A DNA stretch of 64,000 nt from positions 8,623 through 72,622 of the forward strand of contig JBAQNM010000004.1 of the NCBI GenBank assembly GCA_049303795.1, given 5' to 3'. This DNA is from Candidatus Moraniibacteriota bacterium. Lineage in GTDB: Bacteria; Patescibacteriota; Minisyncoccia; Moranbacterales; UBA2206. The position numbers were made by a program, and so were the translations under genes. The notes under the pieces are model-generated. The model did not search any database. It was not told where the DNA came from and was given only the letters and a program-made list of their open reading frames with translations. Positions 10,774 through 56,739 of this stretch are shown in pieces (the first letter of the stretch is position 1; each line of letters opens with the position of its first letter).

Positions 10774-12927
<2,154 letters not shown>

Positions 12928-12937
12928 TCAATAACGC

Positions 12938-14710
12938 TTAACAACAATAGCGACTATCCCCACCACTACAACCAGAGGTGCAACTTCCACAAACAGAGCC
13001 AGGACATAACATCAATCCACAAGTTGTAGGACTATAGCAATTACCACAAGTCGGTGTACACTTACCAAAAGTAGAGCAACTATTTTGAATACAACAAGTT
13101 TCAGATGCATTCGGATGATAACCAGCACTACAAATCACCTTGCAACTTTTTGTTAAGGTATAATTGCAATCCGTCGCTCCTTTAGTACATGTTGTTCCGC
13201 TTACATTCCAACCACTCATTCCTGTTGTAAGGGCTCCGCAATATTTTATTGAATCAGTTATTATAGGAGAAGGACAGGGACGAGAACAACAACGAGATTT
13301 TGTTAAGACATTGCCTGGGGTTGGAATCCTTGGTGGTAATGTTGGAGGATAGAGAGGATTTGGTATTTCACCACCATTCATATCAACATCAATATCATGA
13401 GTTAAAGTCCAAACAGAACTGTTAATACCTTGGTCTTTATCAACATCGTTAGGAGGGCAACCTGTGCAATAACCAACTGTACGACGTGGCTTTGTGCAAC
13501 TAGCTCCAGACAAACAATTTACAGCTTTACCAACACCACAAAAACCGACTCCTCCATTGACACCATCACCTGAGTTATTTCCTGAAGGATATTCTTCAAC
13601 CTTACTAATAACAGAGCCTCTATAGTTATCACCATCAAGATATCCGTGATAATTACCTGTGCATGTTTGCAAACAACAAGTCTTTGCAGCATTAGATACC
13701 CATTCTGGACCCATACAAGACAAACAATGAGAACCATTGCAACAATTATGTGTCCCTCCATATGCGCCAGCCCCGTCAACGCTTCCAAAAATACAGCCAA
13801 GTCCAGACAAGGAGCTTCCTCCAGTACAGTCCGCACTGCCCTCTATTTGAATTGCATCATTAGGATCATAATGATAGAGTGAATCCAATTTAAAGGGGGT
13901 GCTGTTTCTTGCTTTGATAGCAAAAAAGTATTTTTCATTATACTGGCCACCAGTTGTTGCAGTTCCAGGCAATTCAGGATCACCACTTTCAATCAAACGA
14001 GTTTGATTTCTAGTGAAAAAAGAATTGACTGGTGCAGTTCTTTGCAATACTCTTATCCAACCATATTCTCCCGCATTAGCTCCATTTTCCAAAGATCCAG
14101 TGTCATTGTTTCCTGATGACATTCTAACTTCATAATTTACCACTCCGCCGGGAACAGTAGCCTGATTATCATTCACCCTAACAAGCATCTCGCATCTATT
14201 CCACGAGCAACTACCACCACCACCGCATTTCGTAACTGTCAAGCTACCATTAGTGAGCATTCCATCGACTCTATCTGAAACCGGGGCATAGACTGATCGA
14301 GTAACACCTTGATCCGTCACATCAGACTGAGAATTGAAAATGGTTGTTACTTTGTCTGTGCCAGCTGGAGCGGTTGTCCCATCACCTTTAAAACATTGGA
14401 CTCCCGAGCAAAAGCTAGTGGCAAGAGTATTTTCAGGAATTTGATTGTCTGCATAACCGGCATCAGTCCCACTGTCCAATTCATTCAATTTACTCAAAAA
14501 ACCTTCCACAGTTTGATCTGACTGTTGGTATGTAGTATAGCCTTTTTTGGAATCAGTAGTGAGTTGAATACCTTGTAAGGTTCGACTTATAATTGCCAGG
14601 GCAATCGCCGAAATCATTAAAAAAACAATCATAACACCAATAAGCAGTGAGCCCTTCCCTCTAATAAATAGTCCTTTTCTGGATTTTTTTTTGTTTATCT
14701 TTTTATTCAT
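12938..14710 (-). CDS. Large cysteine-rich surface protein with a PilX_N-like N-terminal anchor (candidate pilus-tip/adhesin protein)
   Basis: N-terminus KGLFIRGKGSLLIGVMIVFLMISAIALAI resembles PilX/pseudopilin anchors. 590 aa with about 40 Cys concentrated in the C-terminal half. Last gene of the pil operon. Confidence 0.65.
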   Translation of the reverse strand: MNKKINKKKSRKGLFIRGKGSLLIGVMIVFLMISAIALAIISRTLQGIQLTTDSKKGYTTYQQSDQTVEGFLSKLNELDSGTDAGYADNQIPENTLATSFCSGVQCFKGDGTTAPAGTDKVTTIFNSQSDVTDQGVTRSVYAPVSDRVDGMLTNGSLTVTKCGGGGSCSWNRCEMLVRVNDNQATVPGGVVNYEVRMSSGNNDTGSLENGANAGEYGWIRVLQRTAPVNSFFTRNQTRLIESGDPELPGTATTGGQYNEKYFFAIKARNSTPFKLDSLYHYDPNDAIQIEGSADCTGGSSLSGLGCIFGSVDGAGAYGGTHNCCNGSHCLSCMGPEWVSNAAKTCCLQTCTGNYHGYLDGDNYRGSVISKVEEYPSGNNSGDGVNGGVGFCGVGKAVNCLSGASCTKPRRTVGYCTGCPPNDVDKDQGINSSVWTLTHDIDVDMNGGEIPNPLYPPTLPPRIPTPGNVLTKSRCCSRPCPSPIITDSIKYCGALTTGMSGWNVSGTTCTKGATDCNYTLTKSCKVICSAGYHPNASETCCIQNSCSTFGKCTPTCGNCYSPTTCGLMLCPGSVCGSCTSGCSGGDSRYCC

Positions 14711-14735: not shown

Positions 14736-15230
14736 TTATTTATAGCCGCTACGCATAGAGGTGGTTGTTTGAACAGATGTTCTAATTCCACCGCTTGGAT
14801 TGGTTTTTGAAATAACAACTGTAATCAGTGGTATCTGAGCTGCATTTACAACATAAAATTGACCGTTAACGCCACTGGCAATTATCTGTCCATTTCTTTC
14901 CAAATTACCACCAACAAAATTATAAGTAACGTTTACTGCTGCGCCGGAGTTTTCTTTCAAGGCAATACTATTTCTGACGCCATTAGTAGTTGGCGTAAGC
15001 GTATTGCTCATACGAATATCTTTAGAAACATAGTTCAATGCCAAAGAAAGTTCTTCATTATTCGCCTGATATTTCTTAAGACTTAAGCTACCTTTTAAAT
15101 AGGCACCAGAAACTGCCACGCTTGCGAGAATAGTAATGGAAAAAATAGCCATACCAAAAAGCAACTCTACAAGACTTAATCCTCGCCTGTTAGTATGTAA
15201 CCATTTTTTATTTTTTATTATTTGTTTCAT
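14736..15230 (-). CDS. Type IV minor pilin / pseudopilin
   Basis: Prepilin motif RRGLSLVELLFGMAIFSI (G|LSLVE, Glu at +5). Confidence 0.75.
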   Translation of the reverse strand: MKQIIKNKKWLHTNRRGLSLVELLFGMAIFSITILASVAVSGAYLKGSLSLKKYQANNEELSLALNYVSKDIRMSNTLTPTTNGVRNSIALKENSGAAVNVTYNFVGGNLERNGQIIASGVNGQFYVVNAAQIPLITVVISKTNPSGGIRTSVQTTTSMRSGYK

Positions 15231-15242
15231 TTATTTTTTTGA

Positions 15243-15752
15243 TTAATTGGCATTGGCCCAAGCAGATAAAGTATCAGTCACCACAATTGTTGTGTCTGCT
15301 GCTGCTCCAACAGGTCTCCATGTTACAGTACTTGTGATGGTTCGATCATCCCCGGCAACAGCAATTTGAATTCTTCGTGAAAACTTCGTAGCCGTTCCGC
15401 CAGCCGCATAAGAATAAAAACCAGTGGCTGTTACATTAAGTTTTCTTGTACACAAGGCAGTGCCATCGCTTCCTCCTAAATAATCGCGACAATAATTTCC
15501 TGCAGCTGGAAAAGGCAAATCAAAAGCTTTTCGTGGTGCTTTCCAATTATTATCACGAACATTACGCACAAGCTCAACTCCTTCCTGCGCCAGATTGGCA
15601 GCGATCACATAGTCACGCTTACTAAATTCTGCTCGATACATTAAAGCTAAAATATTTATAAAAACTATCAACGCCACGCCTATAATGAAAATAGCAAAAG
15701 CGGCTTCGATCATAATAAATCCTGACTTTTTTTGTTTTTTTGTTTTTCGCAT
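15243..15752 (-). CDS. Type IV minor pilin / pseudopilin
   Basis: Prepilin motif KSGFIMIEAAFAIFIIG. Confidence 0.7.
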   Translation of the reverse strand: MRKTKKQKKSGFIMIEAAFAIFIIGVALIVFINILALMYRAEFSKRDYVIAANLAQEGVELVRNVRDNNWKAPRKAFDLPFPAAGNYCRDYLGGSDGTALCTRKLNVTATGFYSYAAGGTATKFSRRIQIAVAGDDRTITSTVTWRPVGAAADTTIVVTDTLSAWANAN

Positions 15753-15763
15753 TTTTTAAAATA

Positions 15764-16183
15764 TTAATTGCAAACAGCATTATAAGGAGTAACATTTACC
15801 ACTCTGGAATCAGTGCTGGTTGGTGAAGAGCAAGTGATCACTCCGCTTACATTGCCTATACCGCTAGGAGCCGTATATGTGAAAGGACCAGCGCCGGAAC
15901 ATGTAACTACTCCTCGGAATGTATATGATTCAGAAACGCCCCCACTGATAACAACAACCGTTCCTCCGTTTACAGTCACGGTTACTACTTTATATTTACC
16001 TGAAATGGTATAATTTCTAGCTTTGTTGATTATTCCAGCCACCTGAGTGCATGCATTATGAATGTCAGATGCTTTTTTTCCCTTGCCTAGCAAGCCCCAA
16101 GAAGCCGCTGTTATAATCCCAACAATTGCAACGACTGCAAGAATTTCTATAAGACTGAAAGCTTTTATTTTTTTCTTTAACAT
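15764..16183 (-). CDS. Type IV minor pilin (Ala at the -1 cleavage position)
   Basis: KAFSLIEILAVVAIVGII prepilin-like N-terminus. Confidence 0.65.
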   Translation of the reverse strand: MLKKKIKAFSLIEILAVVAIVGIITAASWGLLGKGKKASDIHNACTQVAGIINKARNYTISGKYKVVTVTVNGGTVVVISGGVSESYTFRGVVTCSGAGPFTYTAPSGIGNVSGVITCSSPTSTDSRVVNVTPYNAVCN

Positions 16184-16192
16184 AAAAAATTA

Positions 16193-16984
16193 TTAAAAAA
16201 GAGAAAGATACCAGTTGGCTATTGAATTATAATAAAAAATTGTGACAATCGTTCCCAAGACTAGAAATGGCGCGAAAGGAACCTGACTACTCATTTTTTT
16301 CTGCTTAATTATTATTAAAATTATACCATAAATTGCACCAATAGCAAAAGCTAAAAATAATCCCAAAAGAATTTCCGGCCAACCAAGAATAAGCCCAAGT
16401 AAAATAACCAGATAAACATCACCCATACCCATCCATTTTTCTTTAGAAAAAAAAGACAACAAAAAGAAGAAAATAAATGCCACAAAAGAACCTATTAAGC
16501 CGGAAAAAGTCAGACTATTAAAAATATTGCCATCGAAAGTAGACCATTCCAAATCAATCAAGAGATTACAAAAAACAGCCAAAATAACCGTTATCCAAAG
16601 TATAATACTGGGAATTTCCATATACAAAAAATCATACACCAAAATGACGATCAAAGCCGAAACGACGGTCAAATAATAAAAAGTAATAAACCATGTCTCC
16701 GTATCAGTTAGCACAAAAAACTTCAAACTCAAAAGAGCAAAAACAATTCCGGTTCCCAATTCGACGATTGGATAGATCCAAGAAATTTTTGTTTTGCAAT
16801 CGCGACATTTAAACCGAAGAAGAATGAAACTTATAACCGGAATATTGTCATACCAACGAATTTGTTTTTTGCATTTCGGACAATATGAACGCCCCATCAA
16901 TGTCTCCGCTAGATTAATTCGATAAACAACAACATTGAGAAAACTACCAATAATTAGTCCTAAAATGAAGAAAATTATTAGCAT
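16193..16984 (-). CDS. pilD: Prepilin peptidase (A24 family)
   Basis: N-terminal CPKC...CRDC zinc-binding domain, polytopic membrane protein. Confidence 0.9.
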   Translation of the reverse strand: MLIIFFILGLIIGSFLNVVVYRINLAETLMGRSYCPKCKKQIRWYDNIPVISFILLRFKCRDCKTKISWIYPIVELGTGIVFALLSLKFFVLTDTETWFITFYYLTVVSALIVILVYDFLYMEIPSIILWITVILAVFCNLLIDLEWSTFDGNIFNSLTFSGLIGSFVAFIFFFLLSFFSKEKWMGMGDVYLVILLGLILGWPEILLGLFLAFAIGAIYGIILIIIKQKKMSSQVPFAPFLVLGTIVTIFYYNSIANWYLSLF

Positions 16985-17080: not shown

Positions 17081-17437
17081 TTACTCATTTTTTATGTTTA
17101 AAATCTTTTTTGAATATAAAATTTTAATTTTAAAATACAAAATTTCAAGTACATATATCAGAAAATTAGAAACCAGAAAAATCGTCAGAACTGAAAAAAT
17201 GAAGTTGCTAATCAAAAATTCAGTTTGTGCTGACGCCCTTTCAAGACTGAATTTTTGATAGTATTTTATTGGATCATAATCATTAAAATTTTGTTTAACA
17301 AAACCAAATGGATAGCCAAAATAAACATCTCCATTTTTATTTGACGGATCGGATTTTTGAATAACAGTAACCGAAAAAAGCACAATTATTATGCTAAATA
17401 CGAATACAATAGCTTTTTTTATAAAATAATTATTCAT
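17081..17437 (-). CDS. Hypothetical small membrane protein
   Basis: 118-aa ORF with two hydrophobic helices, embedded in the pil operon. Confidence 0.4.
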   Translation of the reverse strand: MNNYFIKKAIVFVFSIIIVLFSVTVIQKSDPSNKNGDVYFGYPFGFVKQNFNDYDPIKYYQKFSLERASAQTEFLISNFIFSVLTIFLVSNFLIYVLEILYFKIKILYSKKILNIKNE

Positions 17438-17524
17438 GAATTAAGCAAGTTTATGATAACCTTGAAAAAACATAGCCCTCACAAAAAAATATGCAAGGGC
17501 TATGCGGAAAACTAACACAAAAAA

Positions 17525-17920
17525 CTATAAACAGTCAGTTGAGTTATTAAATGCGACAGCACCAACAAACACACCGCTTTCCGTTACATTGACATCACAA
17601 GCGAGCGCTGCTGTAGTAGAGCCAAAAGCTTTAATATTTTGAGCTGTTATTGTAAATGTTCCTCCTGATGCAGCGCATGTATTAGCTCCAAGAGCCATCC
17701 AGTCAACATTTCCGGTATCAGTTGGAAGAACCAAAGCACCAGCATCGCATTGCATGACAAGTCCAGCCACACCACCACTGACTTCACCTATAAAAGCTGA
17801 CCTATTCGCCTTACCTCTTGCCCCACTCAAACTCACCAACACGATTGAAGCAAGAATACCAATAATCGCGATAACGATCAAAAGCTCAATCAAAGTGAAA
17901 CCTTTTTTCATATTATTCAT
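17525..17920 (-). CDS. pilA: Type IV major pilin
   Basis: KKGFTLIELLIVIAIIGILASIV is the canonical class III signal and N-methyl-Phe pilin N-terminus. C-terminal Cys pair. Confidence 0.9.
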   Translation of the reverse strand: MNNMKKGFTLIELLIVIAIIGILASIVLVSLSGARGKANRSAFIGEVSGGVAGLVMQCDAGALVLPTDTGNVDWMALGANTCAASGGTFTITAQNIKAFGSTTAALACDVNVTESGVFVGAVAFNNSTDCL

Positions 17921-17980: not shown

Positions 17981-18403
17981 TTATAAACAATCAGTATCAT
18001 TATTAAACGCTACTCCGCTAATAAAAATTCCACTTTCAGTGACATCAACAGCGCATAATCCTGCTGTTGTTATATTTCCAAAAGCTTTTACATTGTTTGC
18101 TGTTACATTAAATGTCCCAGTCGCTTCAGCGCAAGTACTTGCAGTAACTGCTGTCCAATTAACATTCCCCGTGCTAGTTGGAAGTCCGGTGCCATCCGTG
18201 AGTAGACCACCGTCATCACACAAACTCACAAGTCCAGCCACTGCCCCACCAACCTCTCCCACAAAAGCCGATCTATTCGCTTTGCCTCTGGCTCCACTCA
18301 AACTCACCAACACGATAGAAGCAAGGATACCGATAATCGCGATAACGATTAAAAGTTCAATAAGCGTAAAACCTTTTTTATTGTTTGTTTTTTTTATTTT
18401 CAT
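17981..18403 (-). CDS. pilA: Type IV major pilin, tandem paralog
   Basis: KKGFTLIELLIVIAIIGILASIVLVSLSGARGKANRSAF is identical to the neighbour over the N-terminal ~40 aa and conserved at the C-terminus (...NNDTDCL). Confidence 0.9.
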   Translation of the reverse strand: MKIKKTNNKKGFTLIELLIVIAIIGILASIVLVSLSGARGKANRSAFVGEVGGAVAGLVSLCDDGGLLTDGTGLPTSTGNVNWTAVTASTCAEATGTFNVTANNVKAFGNITTAGLCAVDVTESGIFISGVAFNNDTDCL

Positions 18404-18509: not shown

Positions 18510-19733
18510 CTACTGAATTTGCCCGGCAATATTATAAATTGGCATTAGAACTCCAACCGCCAAAAAGCCCACACCGATTCCGAGCATAATCATCATTAAG
18601 GGTTCAATCAGTGTTGTCATGTTCTTGGCCATCAAATCAACTTCCTGAGAATAAAATTTATCAATATGTCCCAAGACTGCGTCGACTTGACCTGAATCTT
18701 CTCCAATTTTGATCATATGCGAAACCATTGGAGGCATTAGTTCGCTTTTCTTCAAGCTATCACTCATATTTCCGCCCATCTTAACATTTTCCGCAGTCCT
18801 TAATAATAACTCTTCATATTGAGAATTTCCCACAACGCTGCTGACAATTTTTAGTGCTTTTATGATGGGAATTCCACCAACCAAAAGCACTGCCAGATTT
18901 TCGGCAAATCGAGTAATATAAACGTAGCGAAACATCACTCCAACTATAGGCAAATTTAATTTTGCTTCATCCCATTCTTTCTTTCCCTCTGGGGTGCTGA
19001 GATAATACCAAATTCCACCAATGGCTCCAAAAATAAGTAGAATTGCAGCCCACCAATATTTAGTCATAAAATCCCCCATTAGCATCAATACTGTTGTATA
19101 CCAAGGTACAGTTGCATTCATATCTCTTATCATAACCGACAATTTTGGAATAATTAAAGTAATAACTAAAAATCCTATCACAATAAAAACGACCACGACG
19201 ATACAGGGATAAATTAAGGCTGATTTAATTTTACTAGTCAATGTATAATTTTTTTCAATATTATCCGCCACATATTCGACCGACTTTCTCAAATTTCCGG
19301 AGGATTCGCCAGATCTGATCACACTAATAGAAAGCTCAGAAAAAACCTCCTTATCCTTAGCTAGTGCATCAGAAAGCGTCATCCCGTCCTCAATATCTCT
19401 GATTGCATCAGCTAAAATCCGCTTGAAATATAAATTACTAGTTTGTTCACTGACTGCTACAAGCGCTGTAACAATTGGCACACGGGCTTCGATAAGAATT
19501 GCCAGTTGTCGGAAGAAAATCACCAATTCTTTTTCAGTAACTCGATCAAAATATTTTAGAAAAACCGTTTTTATTGAGCTTTCATTTGCCTCCGTAATAT
19601 GAATCGGAAAAAGATCATTTTTTTGCAAGATCGCCGCAACCATTTCTCTGCTTACAGCATTCATTGAACTCTCTTTGATTTCACCGGTTTTTGTTTTTGC
19701 TTTAAAATTAAATTTCATATTTTTTTCTAACAA
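18510..19733 (-). CDS. pilC: Type IV pilus platform protein (GspF family)
   Basis: 407 aa with two GspF-like repeats and three TM segments. Confidence 0.9.
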   Translation of the reverse strand: MLEKNMKFNFKAKTKTGEIKESSMNAVSREMVAAILQKNDLFPIHITEANESSIKTVFLKYFDRVTEKELVIFFRQLAILIEARVPIVTALVAVSEQTSNLYFKRILADAIRDIEDGMTLSDALAKDKEVFSELSISVIRSGESSGNLRKSVEYVADNIEKNYTLTSKIKSALIYPCIVVVVFIVIGFLVITLIIPKLSVMIRDMNATVPWYTTVLMLMGDFMTKYWWAAILLIFGAIGGIWYYLSTPEGKKEWDEAKLNLPIVGVMFRYVYITRFAENLAVLLVGGIPIIKALKIVSSVVGNSQYEELLLRTAENVKMGGNMSDSLKKSELMPPMVSHMIKIGEDSGQVDAVLGHIDKFYSQEVDLMAKNMTTLIEPLMMIMLGIGVGFLAVGVLMPIYNIAGQIQ

Positions 19734-19773: not shown

Positions 19774-20847
19774 TTAATATCGCAAAATAGTTTCAAAGTT
19801 TTTTCGATCACTGGAATAGGCTTGCGCAACTTCTAGTGAAATCAAACCTCTCCGTACTAAATCAGCTAATGATTTGTCCATTGTTATCATTCCTTCGCCA
19901 GATCCAGTCTCAATCACATTAGCAATTTGATAACTTTTATTTTCTCTAATCAAATTTTCGACGGCATGATTCTTAATCATTAATTCAACAGCAGGGACTC
20001 TTCCTTCTTTATCAATTCTCGGAATTAATCTTTGAGAAACAACTGCCAAAAGCACATTAGCTAATTGGGATCTGATTTGATTTTGTTGATGAGCTGGAAA
20101 AACATCCACGATTCTATCAATTGTTTGAGCTGCATCATTTGTATGCAATGTACCAAAAATCAGATGACCTGTTTCTGCCGCAGTTATAGCTGCACTGATT
20201 GTGTCTAGATCACGCATTTCACCAATCAAAATTACATTGGCATCTTCACGAAAAACCGCTTTTAAAGCTGACTGAAAAGATTCTGTATCTTGATAAACTT
20301 CTCTTTGATTGATTATTGAACGATCTTGCTCGTAAACATACTCAATTGGCTCTTCGATTGTTACAATATGCTTCTCCTCTCTATGATTTATTTCATTAAT
20401 CAACGCTGCCAGAGTTGTTGATTTCCCATGTCCAACCGGACCAACCATTAAAAGTAGCCCCTGAGAAACTTTAGTAAAATCATACAAAATATCCGGCATG
20501 TTCAATTCTTCCAATGTTTTTATTTCTTTGGAAATTAAGCGAAATGCAATACTGGTATAGCCTTGCTGAAAAAAAGCGTTAACACGAAAACGCACTTTGT
20601 CTTCAAGGTTATAGGAAAAATCAACTTGACCATCTTTTTCCATTTTCTTTTTTCTTTCCTCATCCAAAATAACTTCAAAGATTTCATGCGTATCATTTGG
20701 CGTTAAAATTGAATCTTGATTCAGAGGATAGAGTTTTCCATCAATTCGATAGGTTGGATAACGCCCAACAACAAGATGCAAATCTGAGGCACCTCTCTGA
20801 GCCGCTATCCTCAAAAGGTTTTTTATTTTTTGTTCAGTTCTTAACAT
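19774..20847 (-). CDS. pilT: Twitching-motility retraction ATPase
   Basis: Walker A GPVGHGKSTTLAA, with Asp and His boxes. 357 aa. Confidence 0.9.
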   Translation of the reverse strand: MLRTEQKIKNLLRIAAQRGASDLHLVVGRYPTYRIDGKLYPLNQDSILTPNDTHEIFEVILDEERKKKMEKDGQVDFSYNLEDKVRFRVNAFFQQGYTSIAFRLISKEIKTLEELNMPDILYDFTKVSQGLLLMVGPVGHGKSTTLAALINEINHREEKHIVTIEEPIEYVYEQDRSIINQREVYQDTESFQSALKAVFREDANVILIGEMRDLDTISAAITAAETGHLIFGTLHTNDAAQTIDRIVDVFPAHQQNQIRSQLANVLLAVVSQRLIPRIDKEGRVPAVELMIKNHAVENLIRENKSYQIANVIETGSGEGMITMDKSLADLVRRGLISLEVAQAYSSDRKNFETILRY

Positions 20848-20869: not shown

Positions 20870-21253
20870 TTATTTTTTTAGATATTGAGCGATTTTTTCC
20901 AGGACCTCAGAAGGAGTAAAGTGTGATTTAATCAGATAATCATTGGCGCCCAAACCTAAACCTCTATCCACATCATCCTTTTGACTTAAATTAGTGAGTA
21001 ATACGACGGGAATATTTTTTAAACGCTCATCCTTTTTAATTTCCGCCAACATTTCTAATCCATCCATATATGGCATTAGAATATCCAGAAGCATTAGATC
21101 TGGAATATTATTATCATCCTTTAACTTTTCCAATCCTTCTATCCCATTACCTGCCGATATAACTGAAAAACCTTCTTGCGCTAACTTAGTATGATAAATA
21201 TCCATAACGAAAGTATCATCCTCAACAATCATTATTTTTTTCTTTTGTTCCAT
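20870..21253 (-). CDS. Standalone response-regulator receiver (CheY-like, PilH/PilG-like)
   Basis: MIVEDD...DLMLLDILMPYMDG...LKNIPVVLLT...K REC-domain hallmarks, with no output domain. Confidence 0.8.
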   Translation of the reverse strand: MEQKKKIMIVEDDTFVMDIYHTKLAQEGFSVISAGNGIEGLEKLKDDNNIPDLMLLDILMPYMDGLEMLAEIKKDERLKNIPVVLLTNLSQKDDVDRGLGLGANDYLIKSHFTPSEVLEKIAQYLKK

Positions 21254-21289: not shown

Positions 21290-22921
21290 CTAGCCAGTAT
21301 CTTCTGCTAGAGAAAAATTACATTCGGTCACACGCTCCACTTCTTCTATTGTAGTCAATCCCTTGAGTATTTTCAAGACCCCATCTTGTTCAATCGATAA
21401 AATACCAGAATTATCTCTTATTTTTTTTATCAAATCTTCATTTCCATGTTTTTCAATAATAATATTTCTCATTTCTTCTGTAATTAAAACTGCTTCATAA
21501 ATAGCTACGCGACCCTTAAGTCCTGTCCCATTGCAAGCCTCACAACCCTCACCATGATAAAATTTAATTCCATCAGTAATATCAACTCCTTGATTAGCCA
21601 ATTCTTCTTTCGAAATATTCTCGATCTTTTTTGCTACTAAACCACTTATAATAGGAGAAACTGTCCTTTCTTTTTTGCATTTCTCACAAATTCTACGTAC
21701 CAATCTTTGAGCAATCACCAAGCGAAGTGATGATGTCAATAAAAATGGTTCAATTCCCATATCAATCATACGAGGAATGGCCCCAATAGCTGTATTGGTA
21801 TGTAAAGTGGAAAACATTAAATGACCCGTAAGAGCAGCATGTACAGAGAGTTCTGCTGTCTCGGCATCTCGGATTTCTCCCACCATAATTACATTAGGAT
21901 CTTGACGTAGCACGGTACGCAATCCTGAAGCAAAAGTATAGCCAATTTCTGGTCGTATTTGACTTTGATTCATACCTTCAATAAAATACTCAACTGGATC
22001 TTCCAGTGTAATAATATTGCGATCCTCACTGTTTAATATTTTTAAGAGGGTGTAGAGTGTTGTTGATTTTCCACTGCCGGTTGGTCCAGTGAGTAAAATC
22101 ATCCCGAAAGTTTCTTTGATCGCTGATTTTATATCTTCTAAAGCTCTGCCAGCAAGTCCCAACATATCGACGCTACTTGTCCCGGTATCTTTATCCAAAA
22201 TTCTCATTACAACTTTTTCCCCGCTAACTACTGGTAAGGATGAAACACGAAAGTCAATATCCTTGCCTTTAAAATTAAGTCTAAAACGACCATCTTGAGG
22301 TTTTCTTTTTTCATCTATCTTTAGGTTTGCCAAAATTTTTATACGCGAAACAACTGCCGGACCAAGTTCAAGAGGAAAAATAAGGCTAACATGGAGCATT
22401 CCATCCACGCGAAAACGCACACGATAGTCTTTATCCATTGGTTCAACATGAATATCACTTGCCTTTCCCTCCACAGCGTGGCTAATCAACACCTCGACTA
22501 ATTTAGCCACAGGAGCGTCTTTCAAGTTCTCCATTTCACTCAATTTGTCATTTTTTTTCGCATCCTTCTCCGCCTTCTCATTTTTAGTGTTTTCGTCTTT
22601 AAAAGACTCGATAGCTTGATTTAAAGCTTCATTAGCCTCATCATAATGAGAAAAAAGTTCTAAAAATATTTTTTCCGAAACAATGTATGGTTCAACTTGC
22701 ATACTCTCCTTATCTGAAATAAAGCCCAAAACATTCAAGGCTTCTACATTCTCAGGATCAATCATGGCAACTTTTATTACCTTGTCCGTTTTTTCGAAAG
22801 CCATCATTTTATGCCTATCAGAAACCTCTTTCGGTATAATATTAACGACAGAACCAGGAATATTACGAGGTGCTTCTAATAAACTATTCACATTTTTTTC
22901 ATCGCTGATTCCGTCTTGCAT
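21290..22921 (-). CDS. pilB: Type IV pilus assembly ATPase (GspE family)
   Basis: Walker A GPTGSGKSTTL and C-terminal tetracysteine CEKC...CEAC. 543 aa. Confidence 0.9.
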   Translation of the reverse strand: MQDGISDEKNVNSLLEAPRNIPGSVVNIIPKEVSDRHKMMAFEKTDKVIKVAMIDPENVEALNVLGFISDKESMQVEPYIVSEKIFLELFSHYDEANEALNQAIESFKDENTKNEKAEKDAKKNDKLSEMENLKDAPVAKLVEVLISHAVEGKASDIHVEPMDKDYRVRFRVDGMLHVSLIFPLELGPAVVSRIKILANLKIDEKRKPQDGRFRLNFKGKDIDFRVSSLPVVSGEKVVMRILDKDTGTSSVDMLGLAGRALEDIKSAIKETFGMILLTGPTGSGKSTTLYTLLKILNSEDRNIITLEDPVEYFIEGMNQSQIRPEIGYTFASGLRTVLRQDPNVIMVGEIRDAETAELSVHAALTGHLMFSTLHTNTAIGAIPRMIDMGIEPFLLTSSLRLVIAQRLVRRICEKCKKERTVSPIISGLVAKKIENISKEELANQGVDITDGIKFYHGEGCEACNGTGLKGRVAIYEAVLITEEMRNIIIEKHGNEDLIKKIRDNSGILSIEQDGVLKILKGLTTIEEVERVTECNFSLAEDTG

Positions 22922-24303: not shown

Positions 24304-25437
24304 TTAATTTGCTTTTTCTTTTAAATATTCATCAACGCCACCGATTGCCGATCCAATACAAATTGAAAACTTTGATCGGATATCTGAAATTATTGGCTCC
24401 AAAACAGGATCATACTTAATTTTACTAAGCGGGTTACCAATCATTGTTTTTATTTTTAATTTATCAGAAAAATAATCAGAAATACCCACCATGCTAGCTG
24501 TTCCACCAGAAAGAATAATGGCATCTATTTTTTTCTCATCATTATCTTTGGTATATGCTTTTATTATTCTACTAACCTCTCCTGTTATTGTTTCTAGTGC
24601 AAAAAAACTAATTGGAGAATTTTGTTCAAAAAAGTTTTTTTCAGAAGTTTTAAGCTCTGAAGCTCTTTCATTGTCGATCCCCATACCTTTAGCAATCGTT
24701 TTTGTTATATCAAGCCCACCGGCATTAATTGTCCTGTTTACCTTAATAATCCCCCTTTCTACCAATATGGCGTTACAAATATTCGCACCAATATCAACTA
24801 TCACAAAACTTCCTGGATCATTCCCGATTAGGGCGCGAACGATTGGAAATGTTTCCAAATTAATAGCTCTCAGATTTAGTCCGGCAGTTTTAATTAAATT
24901 TTCATACTTCATCACCTTTTCCTTTGATGCAACAATAAGAAGAACCTGAAGCATAACATCATTGCCTGTTTTTTCATCTTCTTCTTTTTTTAAAACATCG
25001 TCATTCAAATTAACAACTGGGACATTTTTTGACACCTGCTTTTTTCCAATAACTTCCCAATTAATAACCACGTCATCTAAGGATGTTGGGATGTGCTTTT
25101 GCGCCTCAAATCTGATAGCTTGCTCCATATCATCGCTAGCTATTTCTGGAAAATCTATAAGCATAATCAGACCGCTGAAAGACGGCAAGGAAATATACAC
25201 GTTCTTTCCTTTAATATTAGCTTTTTTCAATATCTTTTTTAATAAGCGTGGCAAGGCAGCGTAAAAATATTCGGAATTCACATCCCCTTTTCCTGACATA
25301 CTTTCACCTAAAGACATCCATGCATAATTAGAGAGCACGGGACTGCCATTAACAACTTTCAACTCAACAACCTTAACAGAAGAAGTTCCAATATCAACTC
25401 CTATAAATGTATCATTTCCAAAAATTGACTCAAACAT
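24304..25437 (-). CDS. pilM: Type IV pilus assembly ATPase-like actin-fold protein
   Basis: IGVDIGTSSVKVVEL actin-like phosphate-1 motif. 377 aa. Confidence 0.85.
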   Translation of the reverse strand: MFESIFGNDTFIGVDIGTSSVKVVELKVVNGSPVLSNYAWMSLGESMSGKGDVNSEYFYAALPRLLKKILKKANIKGKNVYISLPSFSGLIMLIDFPEIASDDMEQAIRFEAQKHIPTSLDDVVINWEVIGKKQVSKNVPVVNLNDDVLKKEEDEKTGNDVMLQVLLIVASKEKVMKYENLIKTAGLNLRAINLETFPIVRALIGNDPGSFVIVDIGANICNAILVERGIIKVNRTINAGGLDITKTIAKGMGIDNERASELKTSEKNFFEQNSPISFFALETITGEVSRIIKAYTKDNDEKKIDAIILSGGTASMVGISDYFSDKLKIKTMIGNPLSKIKYDPVLEPIISDIRSKFSICIGSAIGGVDEYLKEKAN

Positions 25438-49423: not shown

Positions 49424-50122
49424 TTATTTAGTGTAAACAATAACCGTCAGAGAACTTTTCAAGACAAAATTGTCTTTCTGTGATGATTCATCTTGATTAG
49501 AATTTTTAGGAACACGAAAAATATCACCTACCTTCAATTCATCGCCTAATGATTCAGCTTTATCTTCTAAATCTTTCTTAACATTAAGCGCTATAATATT
49601 AACGTAATTCTGACTATTCTCTAATTTATGTACAAAATTTAAAAGCTTGGGATAATCACCGGTCAAATTAATTTGCATAGAAAAATAATTTCGATAAGTT
49701 AATTTTTCTTCCAGACTCTTTTCAACTTCTTTTCCTTTACTTGATAAACTTTTACTACTAACTTTCGTATTTACTTTTGTATTTCCATTACTATCAATCA
49801 TTTCAATTGTAATCTCATTCCCCGTATTTTCAGCTAACTTTTCAATATACTCAATAAAACCAACATTCTCACTAACATTTAGTATGGAATTAATAGCATC
49901 TTTGTTTTTTTCAAATTCAGCATTAATCTCCTCCATTTGTGGAATTTTCTCAATTTTTTGTTTTTCCAGACTATTATCGATGATTTTCTCTTGAATTTTA
50001 TCAGCTCGACTTTGAATATTTTTAAACAATAAAGTTGTCACAAAATAAAATAGTGGGATTGCAAATACAATAAATACGAAGATATAAACTAAGCTTTTAT
50101 ATTTTTTATAAAAATTTTTCAT
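49424..50122 (-). CDS. PilO-like assembly protein
   Basis: N-terminal TM helix plus coiled-coil, directly downstream of the PilM-PilN fusion. Confidence 0.5.
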   Translation of the reverse strand: MKNFYKKYKSLVYIFVFIVFAIPLFYFVTTLLFKNIQSRADKIQEKIIDNSLEKQKIEKIPQMEEINAEFEKNKDAINSILNVSENVGFIEYIEKLAENTGNEITIEMIDSNGNTKVNTKVSSKSLSSKGKEVEKSLEEKLTYRNYFSMQINLTGDYPKLLNFVHKLENSQNYVNIIALNVKKDLEDKAESLGDELKVGDIFRVPKNSNQDESSQKDNFVLKSSLTVIVYTK

Positions 50123-51747
50123 TCTTGTTTACTATTAAGACATTCCTCTTTTATAGTTAAATCCATCTGAAAATTAACATTGTCTTTTGAAGCCAAGTTG
50201 GATATTGGCAAATTGACTTGAGAAAAACAACCTAGCTGTTCTAATTTCCCTTTAAAAGAAACCATGGATTCTCTTGTTTTCGCATGACCTGCTAAGTATA
50301 AAGAGAGATTTTTCGTAGCAAAATCAGTTATCTCAACTTCTTCAGTTGCAGCAGAAGCTAATTCGGAAAGCATTCGAGACCAATATAGCTGATCCCTATC
50401 AATTGTAATAATTTTCTCAAGATCAGAATTTATACCTGAAAATTTATCTTCATAATATTTAATCATTTCGTACTGAGTGCCACTCGATTGACTCATGCTT
50501 GAATCAGAAATTGTTGCTAAATTTAAATTTAATAAATTTCCAATACTAAATAAAAAAGAAAAAAAACAAAGCACAATAAAAGAAATTATTAATTCCCACC
50601 CCAAAACCAATTTAAATCTCTTAGCCCGAGCAAGTGCTTCTTTTTTATTTTTTGGCAAAAGATTTATCCCCTGTCCTTCAAAATCTTTATACATTGCCAA
50701 ACCTACTGCTGTAGAAAATTGAGTAGACCTATCTTTATTGATAATTGGCAAGTTATTTCCAAAATCAAGATTAACCCAAGGATCGCCGATACTAACCTCT
50801 TTAGCTAATCTTTTTGTCAAATAGGACAACAAACCTTTTAGATTTGATCCACCACCACAAATAATAATCTTTTTTATTTTTGCTCCGACTTCGCCATTAA
50901 TGCTTTGATAGAAATCAATTGATTTTTCAATCTCCATTGCAAGACTTTCCAAATATGATTGCATTGAGTTTAAGATTGAACTTTCTTTATTGACTTGCCC
51001 TAGGCCTTGAGAAAGCTTAATTTTTTCCGCATCCTTATTGTCTATTCCTAGACTTTTTGCAATTGCATCAGTTACGCCTTCTGAAGAAAAAGGAATACTG
51101 GATGTGAAGAAAGGAATTCCATCTTGGGCAACAATAAAATTAGTAATTTTTGATCCCAAATCAACAATCAGTGAAGCGCTTTTTAATTTATTTTTATTCT
51201 GAATAAGACTCCTAATCGCAGCAATAGATTCTGACTCTAATGCAACCACTTCGAGATTTGCCAATTCTAAAACTTCTAAAATATCATCTGCTATGTCACG
51301 AGAAACCGCAACAGTCAAAATACTTAATTTGTTATCTTTATTACCAATTAAGCGCCAATCGTAGTAAATTTGATCGATAGAAAGGGGAATACTCGCTTCA
51401 ATTTCCCATTTTATAGCTTCTTCAATTTCTGATTTTTCCATATGAGGGATCGTGATGATTCTCAGAAAAATCTTTGATTCAGGTAACGAGCATATCGCTT
51501 TTTTAGTATTAATTTTTTTAGGACCGGCACTGTTGATAGCTTTTTTTATAAGTTCAGCAACTCTCTTCTTATCCAAAATACGTCCATCCGCAAAATAATC
51601 GTTAGGAATATCTACCAAGGAATAAGCTCTAATATAATCGCTAGCATTTCTTTTTTCTAATTGCAAAACCTTAAAAGAGAGCTCGCTGAGATCTATCCCG
51701 ACATATCTGTCTTCAAAATTAATTATTTTTTTATTTAAAAAATTCAT
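50119..51747 (-). CDS. PilM-PilN fusion protein
   Basis: N-terminal actin-like PilM (YVGIDLSELSFKVLQL...), a TM helix (LVLGWELIISFIVLCFFSFLF), then a PilN-like C-terminal domain. 542 aa. Confidence 0.7.
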   Translation of the reverse strand: MNFLNKKIINFEDRYVGIDLSELSFKVLQLEKRNASDYIRAYSLVDIPNDYFADGRILDKKRVAELIKKAINSAGPKKINTKKAICSLPESKIFLRIITIPHMEKSEIEEAIKWEIEASIPLSIDQIYYDWRLIGNKDNKLSILTVAVSRDIADDILEVLELANLEVVALESESIAAIRSLIQNKNKLKSASLIVDLGSKITNFIVAQDGIPFFTSSIPFSSEGVTDAIAKSLGIDNKDAEKIKLSQGLGQVNKESSILNSMQSYLESLAMEIEKSIDFYQSINGEVGAKIKKIIICGGGSNLKGLLSYLTKRLAKEVSIGDPWVNLDFGNNLPIINKDRSTQFSTAVGLAMYKDFEGQGINLLPKNKKEALARAKRFKLVLGWELIISFIVLCFFSFLFSIGNLLNLNLATISDSSMSQSSGTQYEMIKYYEDKFSGINSDLEKIITIDRDQLYWSRMLSELASAATEEVEITDFATKNLSLYLAGHAKTRESMVSFKGKLEQLGCFSQVNLPISNLASKDNVNFQMDLTIKEECLNSKQE

Positions 51748-51801
51748 AATGTTATTATACCATAAGTTCTAGGATTTATCCTATTTTTTATTTAAATAAA
51801 A

Positions 51802-53340
51802 TTATAATTCTTCCCAAAGATCAATTGCATACTCCGTTCCAGTTGGAAAATAGGGCGGCGGACAATAGAGTAAGTTATTATCATAATTATAAAGTCGAAC
51901 AGCAAAGCCACTATTACCGTGTTGAAAATATGGTTGCAGATAAGAAGCAATTGCTCCATTAAAGACTAGCGACGTCTTTCCGCTAAATCCATTATCATTT
52001 ATACCAACTGTCCCTAGTTGCGCTAAAATAGCGGCGTCAACTACATATTGGTCCGGACAAGTACCCAAAACTCTAACGTCACGCTCAGCAATTAAGCCAA
52101 GCGAGTTGTCACAATTATAAGCAACATAACGAATATTACTATTAGTTGTTCCAATATAAATATCAGAGGAAGCGCCCCTGGCTACGACGGTTATTCTTTT
52201 ATTATTGACTGTACCATCTAGCCATATGCTATTATCAACAAAAATTACTCCGTTATTTATAATAGAATAGTTATCCAAACTAACACATTTTCCTCTACTC
52301 TGCCTATTTGATTGTATATAAGGACAAGATGAGAAAATACAACATGAAGATGTGGTACAAGTATTTCCATTGGTTCCACTATAAGATCCAGAAGCGCCAC
52401 TGACAATTCCATCAAAAGAGCTTATTACGTGAGTGTTAGAATTGGCCGAATTCACTTTGCATACATCATAAGTTCCATTGCTTTTTATTATTATCCTCCT
52501 TCCTTGTCCGGAATTATCAAAATAACGTCCAGAGCCAGATATAGCTTTGTTATACATATTAGTAAGATTAGCTGAAACTCCAGTGAAACTGACCTCGGAA
52601 ATAGGAAATTCTCTTCCGCCCATAAAAACATCTGGCCGTTCAGGAATAGTACCATCTGGCCAAGGATACGCCGGCGCATGAGCATCTGCTGGATTTACGG
52701 TTGTGTGAACTCCAAACTCTTGACTGTTTCCTCCCCATGTCGGATCGTTAAATCTTGGCAAAAGTGAACTAACCGTGTTATGCGCTAAGCCATCAAAACG
52801 AATGCCATCATTAGAATGCACTTTCCCATACACCTCAGCTTCACTACCAAAATTCATAAAGCTATTAGATAAGAATGAATACTCACTCCAGGAAGGTCTT
52901 CTAAATCTCACCTTAACAGTTCTTTTCATATCAGGAAATTTATTCGACCAGCCAGTTGATTCAACATTAATTATTGTAGAACCAATAGCCGGAGGTTCTA
53001 TGGAGAGTTGATATGCGCCCATGCTATTATAATACTCCACCGGATCAGGAGAAAAACCCATAGGCCCGCCAGTTTCCAAAAAAGAATTAATTTCTAAAGC
53101 AGTCTTGCCAGAAGTTTCATGAGCAAGATACCATCTGTAATAATATATTCCTGCTTCTGCAATTTGAAAAGCCTTTTCTTTTTCAACACGATTAATGCTA
53201 AATTTAATTTGTGAAGTAATGTACCCGAGCATAGAAACTAGTATTATCGTAACTACCGTCATAATGACAAGCACATAAGCTAATGTCGATCCGCGTTGCT
53301 TTTTAAAGCATGCTTCTTTTTTATTCAATACCTGTTTCAT
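51802..53340 (-). CDS. PilX_N-domain large pseudopilin-like protein
   Basis: N-terminus QRGSTLAYVLVIMTVVTIILVSMLGYI is PilX_N-like and lacks Glu5. Large Gly/Ser/Asn-rich beta-type C-terminal region. 512 aa. Confidence 0.6.
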   Translation of the reverse strand: MKQVLNKKEACFKKQRGSTLAYVLVIMTVVTIILVSMLGYITSQIKFSINRVEKEKAFQIAEAGIYYYRWYLAHETSGKTALEINSFLETGGPMGFSPDPVEYYNSMGAYQLSIEPPAIGSTIINVESTGWSNKFPDMKRTVKVRFRRPSWSEYSFLSNSFMNFGSEAEVYGKVHSNDGIRFDGLAHNTVSSLLPRFNDPTWGGNSQEFGVHTTVNPADAHAPAYPWPDGTIPERPDVFMGGREFPISEVSFTGVSANLTNMYNKAISGSGRYFDNSGQGRRIIIKSNGTYDVCKVNSANSNTHVISSFDGIVSGASGSYSGTNGNTCTTSSCCIFSSCPYIQSNRQSRGKCVSLDNYSIINNGVIFVDNSIWLDGTVNNKRITVVARGASSDIYIGTTNSNIRYVAYNCDNSLGLIAERDVRVLGTCPDQYVVDAAILAQLGTVGINDNGFSGKTSLVFNGAIASYLQPYFQHGNSGFAVRLYNYDNNLLYCPPPYFPTGTEYAIDLWEEL

Positions 53341-53403
53341 TTTTTATTTTTTTAATGTTATAAAATTATATACCTAAAATATGATACTTTCTTGATATTA
53401 TCC

Positions 53404-54081
53404 TTAGTGAATTCTGTCATAATCATTTAGGTTTCGCATTTCAACAAATGATTGCATTTCAATATTATCAGGAGCCCGATTAGGGTCAATATTTATTTTA
53501 AGATTAATCTTTATTAGACGAATATTGGTAATATTGGCTGGCGTTGTTAATGGAAGTTGAGAAGGAGCGCCAGCGTAGTTTCCATCATAATAATAGAAAA
53601 TTGGCTCACTTTCTGTATTTACAATTCTATTCGCAATAACAATAGTCTCCTCATCACCTCCAGGATAAGTTTTAGGCATTGTCATTGTTGGCTCGGTAAC
53701 ACCCATCAAAATATTTTGACCATCCTTATATATATGTAACCTTTCAGTTATTCCATCACGATTATAATCCGAATAGACGACGAAATCATTATCATCCGCT
53801 GATTCAATTGGATAGGAACCACTATCAGACTGTCTGGCACTCCTCAAATAACCTCCTATCATATTAACTCCTCGAGAAACTGCCATAGAAGATTGTCCCA
53901 TCTCTAGAGTATATGCATTATTTTTCCAGGTATTCATAAAAAGTAAGGTGAAACCTTCCATACCTATGGCAAAAATAGCAATAGCCACTAATGTTTCAAC
54001 TAGAGTCAAGCCTTTCCTGCTAATTCTTTCTCTAGAACTAGCAATTATTTTTTTTTGTTTGTTTAAAATTTCTTTTTTCAT
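53404..54081 (-). CDS. Type IV minor pilin / pseudopilin
   Basis: RKGLTLVETLVAIAIFAIG prepilin motif. The start overlaps the upstream stop (TAATG). Confidence 0.7.
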   Translation of the reverse strand: MKKEILNKQKKIIASSRERISRKGLTLVETLVAIAIFAIGMEGFTLLFMNTWKNNAYTLEMGQSSMAVSRGVNMIGGYLRSARQSDSGSYPIESADDNDFVVYSDYNRDGITERLHIYKDGQNILMGVTEPTMTMPKTYPGGDEETIVIANRIVNTESEPIFYYYDGNYAGAPSQLPLTTPANITNIRLIKINLKINIDPNRAPDNIEMQSFVEMRNLNDYDRIH

Positions 54082-55457
54082 TATATTACGGGCTGCAATC
54101 TTACAACTTCCAATTTAAGACTATCAACCTCAATTGCAACATCAACCTCTTTATCTAAAAATCCATCAGCTGTAACTTTTATATGATAGGTTTCAGGTAA
54201 AAATGGATCGGCCGAATCTGGAAAAAAAACTTTTCCATCACTGTCAGTTATTAGATCTTTTTCATAGCCCAGAGTGACATTGGTTAGTTTAACATTTGCT
54301 CCAGAAATAGTTGAGTCATCGGTATCACTAATTATTGTAGCCAAAAGAGCAGTTACTGTTTTGCTCGCTAGTTTCACTTCAACAGATAAAGTTCCGTCTG
54401 AGGATAATAATAGAAATGGCGTAGTTTCAGCTGTATTAATTATTTCGTAATCATCAGCTGTTGAACCTATTAAAGAAAGGTTATACTCTCCAGGACTGAC
54501 TGAGCTGAGTACTTCTTTACCACTAGAATCAGTTGTAATATCGTCATCAAAACTATAAACTGGAGTAAAGGGATCGATTGCCATATTGCCAAGTTTTCTG
54601 CCTCCAGTAAGATGAAAGTTGGCATTGGAAATCGCTTCATTAAGATAGTTAACACTAGAAATTTCGATATTGGCTAATTTATTTTGAACAATATCTTTTA
54701 CATTCATTGAACCAGTCACAACCGAAGCATGAATATCAACCGGGGTATAGAGGTTTTCAGGATAAGGAGGCATGGTCATGACTGTTTCGTAGCCTGATTT
54801 TGTTATAGCAAGTTGATATTTCTGGATGGAATCAGTTACATTACTACCCATAAAAGTTACATTACCTGAAGCGTCTGTCATGCCATAGGTATTAATCCCT
54901 GTATCTGGGTTATATATTTGCACCTTGGCATCGGAAATGCCAGCTCCACCTGGCTGATTACTAAAAATATTGACAGAAAGAATCCCATCTCCAATATGAG
55001 GCACCTCTTTGCCTGGAGGAACAAAACGCGAAACCAATTCAACTTTGCTGCTATTTTCTCCGCTACCCCATGAAACAGTCACGGTGACTTTTTTATAGTC
55101 CTCAAACCAAACCGTATCGGCAAAAGCAATCCCATCAAAAGGATCATCCACATACACTACATCGATGTGCACATTATAATGACTAGCATTTTCTGATACA
55201 TTCTCATCCTGAGGAATATTTCCTTCAATAGCGCCCCCGCTAGTACCAATATCATCATATTTAAGATTACGTATAATTTCTATTTTTTCATTAGCAATCG
55301 CAAGGGCACCAAGTCTATTTTTTGAGTCTTGAATATAGCGAATGCCCACAGATAAAACAGAATAGAATGTTACTGTGATTAGGGAAAAAATAAACAAAAC
55401 GGTCAACGCCTCGATCAACAAAAAACCTTTTTTATCAACAGATTGGCTTGATTTCAT
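54081..55457 (-). CDS. Large minor pilin (PilV-like)
   Basis: KKGFLLIEALTVLFIFSLI prepilin motif. 458 aa with beta-rich, carboxypeptidase-regulatory-like repeats. Confidence 0.7.
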   Translation of the reverse strand: MKSSQSVDKKGFLLIEALTVLFIFSLITVTFYSVLSVGIRYIQDSKNRLGALAIANEKIEIIRNLKYDDIGTSGGAIEGNIPQDENVSENASHYNVHIDVVYVDDPFDGIAFADTVWFEDYKKVTVTVSWGSGENSSKVELVSRFVPPGKEVPHIGDGILSVNIFSNQPGGAGISDAKVQIYNPDTGINTYGMTDASGNVTFMGSNVTDSIQKYQLAITKSGYETVMTMPPYPENLYTPVDIHASVVTGSMNVKDIVQNKLANIEISSVNYLNEAISNANFHLTGGRKLGNMAIDPFTPVYSFDDDITTDSSGKEVLSSVSPGEYNLSLIGSTADDYEIINTAETTPFLLLSSDGTLSVEVKLASKTVTALLATIISDTDDSTISGANVKLTNVTLGYEKDLITDSDGKVFFPDSADPFLPETYHIKVTADGFLDKEVDVAIEVDSLKLEVVRLQPVI

Positions 55458-55462
55458 TTTTT

Positions 55463-56683: not shown

Positions 56684-56739
56684 AATTTTTATTTTTGTTA
56701 AACAAGATGACCACTAAGATTTATAACCAAATTTATACG

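Follow-up and report, generated by a model that had tools for sequence, protein, structure and literature searches.

A complete type IV pilus operon occupies part of the reverse strand of a 64,000-nucleotide stretch of DNA from Candidatus Moraniibacteriota bacterium (GenBank assembly GCA_049303795.1, contig JBAQNM010000004.1, positions 8,623 to 72,622; hereafter the window), and its last gene, an open reading frame (ORF) at 12938..14710, is the subject of this report. All coordinates are window positions unless a related locus is named, and every window feature described here lies on the reverse strand. The gene starts with ATG and encodes a protein of 590 amino acids (aa), hereafter the target, which we describe as a modular minor pilin in the PilX/GspK position; an identical public protein (P0001), derived from a metagenome-assembled genome, is annotated 'hypothetical protein, Candidatus Moraniibacteriota'. 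Pfam annotation of the window ORFs gives the operon order pilM-pilN-pilO-pilB-receiver-pilT-pilC-two pilins-118-aa ORF-pilD-three minor pilins-target. Beginning 33 nt past the target stop codon there is an intrinsic terminator (12904-12875; 10-bp stem, 8-nt loop, U7; folding energy -16.9 kcal/mol for a 78-nt stretch, z -2.9), followed by TATAAT and then by the likely ATG start of ligA at 12858. The pilus transcription unit therefore ends with the target, in agreement with an earlier note on this DNA, which had placed it at the end of a pilM...pilD-minor-pilin operon.

The earlier note had also reported about 40 cysteines and a remainder rich in Gly, Ser, Thr and Asn, and both descriptions hold. 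The ORF encodes exactly 40 Cys (6.8%), compared with a mean of 0.98% over the 48 window ORFs that are 150 aa or longer, among which the next Cys-richest reaches 2.4%; residues 295-590 hold 34 of the 40, and Cys makes up 19% of the final 90 residues. The corresponding counts for the other residues are G 76, S 57, T 57 and N 39, and all of the motifs quoted from the protein were found in it (NCCNGSHCLSCMG, KTCCLQTCTG, RCCSRPCPSP, ...CGSCTSGCSGGDSRYCC and RGKGSLLIGVMIVFLMISAIALAI).

The N-terminus has the features of a class III-type signal, MNKKINKKKSRKGLFIRGKG↓SLLIGVMIVFLMISAIALAII, in which the arrow marks the putative prepilin-peptidase site and a short basic leader ending in Gly is followed by a hydrophobic stretch of about 20 residues. 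The leader, MNKKINKKKSRKGLFIRGKG (aa 1-20; 14651..14710), contains nine Lys or Arg and no Asp or Glu (isoelectric point, pI, 12), and its terminal Gly occupies position -1 of the site G↓SLLIG, after which PilD would be expected to cleave (Gly20). The hydrophobic N-terminal segment and a long alpha-1 helix, the pilin spine, make up aa 21-80 (14471..14650) and include the conserved motifs R(S/T)xQG and YQxSDxxxE; the sole hydrophobic segment of the protein falls at residues ~20-42, so that the secretion and anchor signal on which the earlier note depended is present. A homopolymer of nine adenines (14684-14692; gene nt 19-27) lies within the Lys-rich codons of the leader, and could be a site of slipped-strand phase variation or merely a run of AT-rich Lys codons.

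Three small minor-pilin genes precede the target: minor pilin 1 (139 aa; 15764..16183), with weak GspH/ComGE-like matches, minor pilin 2 (169 aa; 15243..15752), with weak PilV/ComGE-like matches, and minor pilin 3 (164 aa; 14736..15230), which matches N_methyl (E 9.6e-6) and is weakly PpdB/GspJ-like (PRK10557, E 1.3e-6; gspJ, E 0.015). Their H-, I- and J-like labels derive from weak NCBIfam matches only, and behind them the target takes the fourth, K-class position. Along this cassette the processing sites read KA↓FSLIE, SG↓FIMIE, RG↓LSLVE and, in the target, KG↓SLLIG; that is, the target has Gly at -1, Gly at +5 and no Glu5, and the other five pilins of the operon all carry Glu5. Gly-1 is kept throughout the family, and in full-length relatives with a readable N-terminus residue +5 is nearly always G or A and never E. 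Pfam PilX_N is matched by 4 of the 37 members that consist of the family base only (best E 9.2e-6), while P0046 scores 21.9 bits, under the 25.5 cut-off. Aligned with hhalign, the family profile falls in register with the N-terminus of the bona fide PilX_N protein encoded elsewhere in the window (E 2.5e-4). The PilX/pseudopilin-like anchor that had been proposed for the target is supported by the conserved Gly-1, the lack of Glu5 and the PilX_N matches of some relatives. An NCBIfam 'tapirin' match to the target (E 0.069), confined to its N-terminal 75 residues, was rejected as a similarity of composition or helix rather than homology.

Relatives of the target were collected with an exhaustive profile search of 1.84 billion protein representatives (E<=1e-3), which returned 77. 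Word-indexed searches had yielded four proteins in all, that is, three homologues at 34-49% identity, and their low yield is probably due to low-complexity Cys/Gly words flooding the candidate list. All members share a base of ~250-290 aa, comprising the pilin head and an FN3-like domain, and many are the base alone; a Cys-rich C-terminal extension is present in about 25 relatives, with totals of 22-76 Cys, and P0046 and P0053 have Fib_succ_major (PF09603) in place of the Cys-rich module. Counted by clusters among the 1.84 billion representatives, the Cys-rich module occurs in about 30. The motifs of the base are, in order, (K/R)G↓(S/F)hhhh, R(S/T)xQG, YQxSDxxxE, IPEN and the C101/C106 pair, with W...E(V/I)R...YxFx(I/V)KAxN...LDSLY in its second half.

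Among the related loci, the 8 distinct ones that include upstream sequence (L001, L002/L003/L006, L008, L009, L010, L011, L012) all have the order PilD-minor1-minor2-minor3-target homologue. A minor pilin 3 gene stands directly upstream of every homologue, and minor pilin 3 is a predicted tip-complex partner of the target. In L002, L006 and L012 this module is separate from pilMNOBTC and adjoins priA. Each of three distant relatives, P0039 (base only), P0053 (with Fib_succ_major) and P0064 (76 Cys), is likewise fourth after three small pilin-like genes. Homologues were accordingly always found in pilus or minor-pilin cassettes; their absence from such operons would have spoken against the earlier note. 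Four of the related loci carry a second, divergent minor-pilin trio directly after the Cys-rich gene (L002 11905-13523, L006 9947-11565, L011 9675-11310, L012 10030-11642), 27-38% identical to minor pilins 1-3, which suggests a duplicated minor-pilin cassette.

The structure of the target was predicted with AlphaFold2, first from a four-sequence alignment, which gave an unusable model (predicted local distance difference test score, pLDDT, 31.5) and was replaced by a family alignment of 35 sequences. The resulting model has a mean pLDDT of 80.2, a predicted template-modelling score of 0.65 and 280 residues at or above 90. It begins with a helix over residues 21-80 (pLDDT 80-94) that leads into a small pilin head (aa 81-150; 14261..14470), which contains the IPEN motif and the nearly invariant Cys101 and Cys106 and is built from strands at 105-107, 126-133 and 136-143 (pLDDT ~90); long N-terminal helix and beta-sheet head together form the lollipop fold of pilins. 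Between the head and the Cys module lies a spacer, an FN3-like beta-sandwich (aa 151-285; 13856..14260) that bears the W...E(V/I)R...YxFx(I/V)KAxN...LDSLY signature.

Three parts can be distinguished in the Cys-rich region, which is modelled as short strands with pLDDT 87-94 outside two loops and the last 45 residues. The first is a unique core (aa 286-501; 13208..13855) with the pattern YNCCNGxxC...W...CxLQxC...GxCG...C...C...PYRxVGYC...W...DVDM...RC(C)xxxCP, interrupted by variable loops of low confidence at aa ~351-390 and ~441-470. The second is a single copy of a Cys unit of ~50 aa (aa 502-548; 13067..13207; TC..xC.Y..T..C.(L/V).C..GY...CC...C), recognised by a dedicated hidden Markov model (HMM), and the third is a variable Cys-rich tail (aa 549-590; 12941..13066; pLDDT 36-41) that ends in ...RYCC; the last 45 residues hold 10 Cys, and the tail differs in length and sequence among homologues and is missing from P0002. 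A D(V/I)DM motif (aa 441-444; 13379-13390), found in most Cys-rich family members just ahead of the Pro-rich variable loop, may be a cation-binding or structural motif.

The Cys module has no match in Pfam, NCBIfam or PDB, and in a PDB profile search with the module alone the best match had an E of 1.1. Known Cys-repeat families are matched by none of 35 long relatives screened, and since the target has no Pfam match at E<=10 we rejected its identity with EGF, knottin, furin-like or Myxococcus Cys-rich repeats. The suggestion that the region might consist of repeats of a known kind thus stands in part only: no known repeat family is matched, but there is a ~50-aa Cys unit, beside a unique Cys scaffold of ~215 aa. 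Marginal Foldseek matches in PDB to Kir channels (a helix plus an Ig-like sandwich) were judged coincidental, and the BFVD viral fold library returned FN3 matches only, none of them significant.

The distribution of cysteines across the family bears on their state. The Cys count is even in 24 of 24 full-length Cys-rich members, over a range of 22-76 (binomial p=6e-8), and in 62 of 67 sequences across the whole family (p=7e-14); control ORFs from the window show no parity bias (13 even versus 22 odd). Individual cysteines also come and go in pairs. C418 and C475, which stand second in the CxxC (415/418) and in the RCC (474/475), occur together in 6 sequences and are both lacking in 7. The states of C415 and C474 coincide in 25 of 26 sequences, while P0001 and P0002 have both C332 and C346 and P0003 and P0004 have neither. 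C173 and C324 agree in 30 of 30, which suggests from sequence covariation a disulfide that staples the Cys module to the FN3-like domain. Even parity and paired gain and loss, taken with the N-terminal signal, lead us to conclude that the module is disulfide-bonded, extracytoplasmic and oxidised, much as the earlier note had anticipated. Coordination of metal (Zn, Fe-S or metallothionein-like) or haem by the same residues, which the several CxxC and CC motifs might bring to mind, is so improbable as to be set aside, since the even counts are mostly not the multiples of four that Cys4 sites would lead one to expect (34, 42, 50, 58, 66), cysteines are gained and lost pairwise, the target has 6 His and no CxxCH motif, its Cys match no metal-binding family, intracellular enzymes included, in Pfam, NCBIfam or PDB, and its topology puts the module outside the cell.

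The target is, moreover, the fastest-diverging gene of the locus. Identities to the L001 orthologues are 96% for PilT, 94% for LigA, 92% for PilC, 89% for PilB, 85% for PilD and 65-74% for the minor pilins, compared with 48.5% for the target, within which identity is 61-73% in the base and 32-36% in the Cys-rich part, with its scaffold of Cys, Gly and aromatic residues retained. The number of terminal units also varies, a point that the earlier note had proposed to check among orthologues. Self-BLASTP finds no internal repeats in the target, and the ~50-aa unit is detected solely by its own HMM (TC..xCGxYxxTxxCxLxCxxGY...YPxGxCCxxxCP), which counts one copy in the target, P0002, P0003 and P0006. 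P0004, P0007 and P0010 have two copies, the L008-L010 homologues (956-969 aa) three, and P0008 and P0005 four to five, in each case atop the non-repetitive core of ~215 aa. A diversity-generating retroelement was considered and rejected, since the window contains no repeat that could act as template for the target gene or a part of it. Fast divergence, a kept scaffold with variable loops, copy-number variation and module swapping are together what would be expected of a surface-recognition module.

From these observations we regard the target as a core minor pilin of a retractile type IV pilus, the fourth of its set and in the position of PilX/GspK, and we consider it probable, though by no means assured, that it is a modular pilin whose disulfide-rich module forms the distal, adhesive end of the filament. 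More tentatively, the Cys module may be a new disulfide-stapled fold, with some 17 disulfides, hypervariable loops and a copy-variable unit, that sets the partner specificity of a Candidate Phyla Radiation (CPR) pilus; this narrower proposal we hold to be possible, with the odds somewhat against it. Cleavage by PilD, placement at the tip, adhesive function and the kind of ligand bound are all surmised from the architecture and its evolution.

The mechanism we envisage would begin with PilD, encoded four genes upstream, removing the basic leader that ends in Gly. The alpha-1 helix would then dock with the three small minor pilins encoded upstream to form a priming complex that becomes the pilus tip, and the lack of Glu5 would make the target its top-most subunit, as has been argued for GspK. 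Beyond the pilin head and the FN3-like spacer would project a module of ~300 residues, held together by about 17 of the protein's 20 disulfides, in which a rigid scaffold of Cys, Gly and aromatic residues displays variable loops. This distal module would bind a ligand, probably some structure on the surface of a partner cell or substrate, and PilT-driven retraction could then draw the cell onto the bound target.

Several points weigh against this interpretation. The target itself matches no Pfam family, including PilX_N (PF14341), T2SSK and N_methyl (PF07963), even at E<=10, and the hhalign probability for the family profile against the window PilX_N protein is 43%. The parity and co-occurrence tests use related sequences, which are not fully independent trials, though their Cys counts differ widely. 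A crude motif scan, with partial Pfam coverage of the 64-kb window, revealed no Dsb-, VKOR- or thioredoxin-type oxidoreductase, a result that is uninformative for the genome as a whole. The module lacks a homologue of known function, so that neither a binding function nor a ligand can be derived from its sequence, and the host-contact role and episymbiotic lifestyle suggested by the earlier note are suppositions.

Of the alternatives, the one that survives best retains the target as a tip or priming minor pilin and makes the Cys module purely structural, a rigid cap or spacer, resistant to proteases and shear, that stabilises the tip complex or controls assembly and retraction. Dense disulfide bonding would confer such rigidity, the many relatives that are the base alone show that the core function of the family is independent of the Cys module, and priming of assembly by core minor pilins is known from other systems (cited as background in PMC11623550). 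A structural cap would not, however, be expected to diverge faster than the rest of the locus, nor to be exchanged for Fib_succ_major and to vary in repeat number, behaviour that is typical of surface-recognition modules, and we therefore rate it unlikely.

Slightly less likely still is that the protein does not belong to the pilus at all, being held instead by an uncleaved signal anchor as a membrane-tethered protein of the cell surface, an adhesin or a component of the envelope, that simply shares a transcript with the pilus genes. The want of an N_methyl or PilX_N HMM match in the target would suit such a protein. It would leave unexplained the family-wide conservation of Gly-1, a basic leader and a position 5 without Glu, the PilX_N matches of some members and the fourth place after three pilin-like genes, which is kept despite differing neighbourhoods; the predicted helix, moreover, is 60 residues long and pilin-like, and not a transmembrane anchor of ~20 residues.

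A pilus-tip DNA receptor for competence, like Thermus ComZ, through which a nucleotide-auxotrophic CPR bacterium would capture DNA by PilT retraction, seems to us improbable. The target is indeed a large minor pilin in the minor-pilin cassette of a retractile pilus with PilT, and ComZ has been cited as a modular minor pilin in transformation (PMC8179133). The mature target is acidic, however, with a pI of 5.3 that disfavours DNA binding, and it shows no ComZ-type beta-solenoid and no sequence or fold match in PDB. Returning to the adhesive tip that we favour, we describe in the following the genes around the target.

Upstream of the minor pilins, the conserved PilD-minor pilin-target module is headed by the prepilin peptidase PilD (16193-16984; A24_N_bact E 1.7e-32, Peptidase_A24 E 2.8e-11). 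The remaining genes of the operon include, by Pfam annotation, PilM (24304-25437), with PilN and PilO next to it, PilB (21290-22921), PilT (19774-20847) and PilC (18510-19733). Between pilB and pilT there is a stand-alone response-regulator receiver domain gene (20870-21253), which recurs at the same position in L001 and L011 with 82-92% identity. Two tandem major-pilin paralogues (17525-17920 and 17981-18403) have the canonical site KKG↓FTLIELL, are near-identical over their N-terminal ~45 residues (FTLIELLIVIAIIGILASIVLVSLSGARGKANRSAF) and contain four Cys apiece; one L011 counterpart carries eight. The interval between these major pilins and pilD contains an unconserved 118-aa ORF (17081-17437), which is absent from the orthologous position in L001 and whose product has a hydrophobic segment at its N-terminus and matches no family. 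Directly after the two major-pilin genes and ahead of this ORF comes a strong terminator-like hairpin (17470-17505; 14 pairs and a T-run), which suggests attenuation separating the highly expressed major pilins from a sub-operon of PilD, minor pilins and target.

On the other side of the target, a mechanically assigned GTG start for ligA at 12915 (12856-12915) reads through the terminator hairpin and is an artefact; the true start is likely to be the ATG at 12858 (MPKNNNQ...), in front of which TATAAT lies. In L001, the closest orthologous locus, an inserted AbiEii-type toxin gene pair (L001 12054-13363) separates the Cys-rich gene from ligA at the point where the window has the terminator alone.

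The window contains a second, separate type IV filament locus (49424-58485). Its products are a PilB-like ATPase (56740-58485) and a PilC-like protein (55463-56683), a protein of 458 aa that has CarboxypepD_reg/SpaA-like domains (54081-55457), an N_methyl pilin of 225 aa (53404-54081), a PilX_N protein of 512 aa (51802-53340), PilM fused with PilN (50119-51747) and a protein of 232 aa; PilT was not seen among them. The 512-aa protein, which is the PilX_N protein used in the profile alignment described above, matches PilX_N above threshold, has the site QRG↓STLAYV, no Glu5 and 10 Cys, and is unrelated to the target past the N-terminus.

Partner recognition and attachment by the ultra-small CPR/Patescibacteria are largely unexplained, and genetic evidence has so far come solely from a PilX-type minor pilin of Saccharibacteria. 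The same design is now found in uncultured Moraniibacteriota, as a chassis of pilin base and FN3-like spacer with interchangeable outer modules, one of which is rare, fast-evolving, heavily disulfide-bonded and has no known relative. If that module is a binding tip, the target is a candidate determinant of host range and could serve as pull-down bait for the partner; and if it sets partner specificity, it would offer a sequence handle on the host range of uncultured Moraniibacteriota. A bacterium with a minimal genome would then be folding a 20-disulfide protein outside the cell, which would imply an efficient extracytoplasmic pathway of oxidative folding.

Comparison with known systems places the target within a documented design. 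The closest precedent comes from Saccharibacteria (Nanosynbacter lyticus TM7x), whose largest minor pilins, PilX1 and PilX2, have no predicted PilD signal peptides and carry a beta-jelly roll and a 7-bladed propeller as C-terminal accessory domains; efficient binding to the host requires PilX2, which is dispensable for filament extrusion, and the genome encodes two separate type IV pilus systems (PMC11623550). TM7x PilX1/PilX2 and the target are alike in belonging to the CPR, in being the largest minor pilin of their locus, in their non-canonical signal (not GFxxxE), in joining a lollipop base to a C-terminal accessory domain and in being proposed tip proteins. They differ in that the target has an FN3-like domain and a disulfide-rich module where the TM7x proteins have jelly roll and propeller. 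The window itself mirrors TM7x in having two type IV systems, both of which include a large PilX-like protein of their own.

By its place in the operon, the target resembles GspK of the type II secretion system (T2SS), PilX of the Pseudomonas type IVa pilus and ComGG, each being the fourth gene, with a leader ending in Gly, without Glu5 and the largest of the four; by analogy with the GspK-GspI-GspJ complex, the K-class subunit without Glu5 is expected to cap the fibre together with its I/J-like partners (summarised in PMC8179133). GspK proper was nonetheless rejected as an identity: the model predicts beta elements only after residue 100, with no helical insertion corresponding to the alpha-domain of GspK, the extra domains are appended C-terminally, and T2SSK (Pfam) is not matched. 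The PilY1/PilC tip adhesins of diderm type IVa pili offer a functional analogy, being large, variable, tip-presented adhesins encoded with minor pilins; identity with them was rejected, since PilY1 is a non-pilin with a Sec signal and a C-terminal beta-propeller (IPR008707), and no such propeller was found in the target. Large Cys-rich extracellular proteins, strain-variable and with a proposed role in attachment, have been described from Peribacteria, another CPR lineage (PMC4736985). These differ from the target in their size (mean 1,655 aa), Sec-type export and lack of any link to a pilus, and no homology to the target was detected.

A more general counterpart is the modular pilin, as exemplified by Streptococcus sanguinis PilB, with a vWA domain, and PilC, with a lectin domain (Raynaud et al. 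2021, PMC8179133). The census of modular pilins in that study included CPR proteins, found an FN3 (IPR003961) architecture among the most frequent and relied on IPR012902 (PMC8179133). The class III signal peptide of S. sanguinis PilB is canonical and IPR012902 recognises it, whereas the target, which matches neither IPR012902 nor N_methyl, would escape such a census. Like the modular pilins, the target joins a pilin module to a C-terminal graft that is predicted to be exposed at the tip, here a pilin base followed by an FN3-like domain and the Cys-rich module, and its family swaps modules, some relatives being the base alone and others the base with Fib_succ_major; unlike theirs, its Cys-rich module is not database-defined. 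Tip-displayed accessory modules on PilX-like pilins are thus already documented in CPR, and Cys-rich CPR attachment proteins have been noted before, though not as pilus subunits. The Cys module of the target is an undescribed, database-orphan and lineage-restricted domain set upon this already known modular design.

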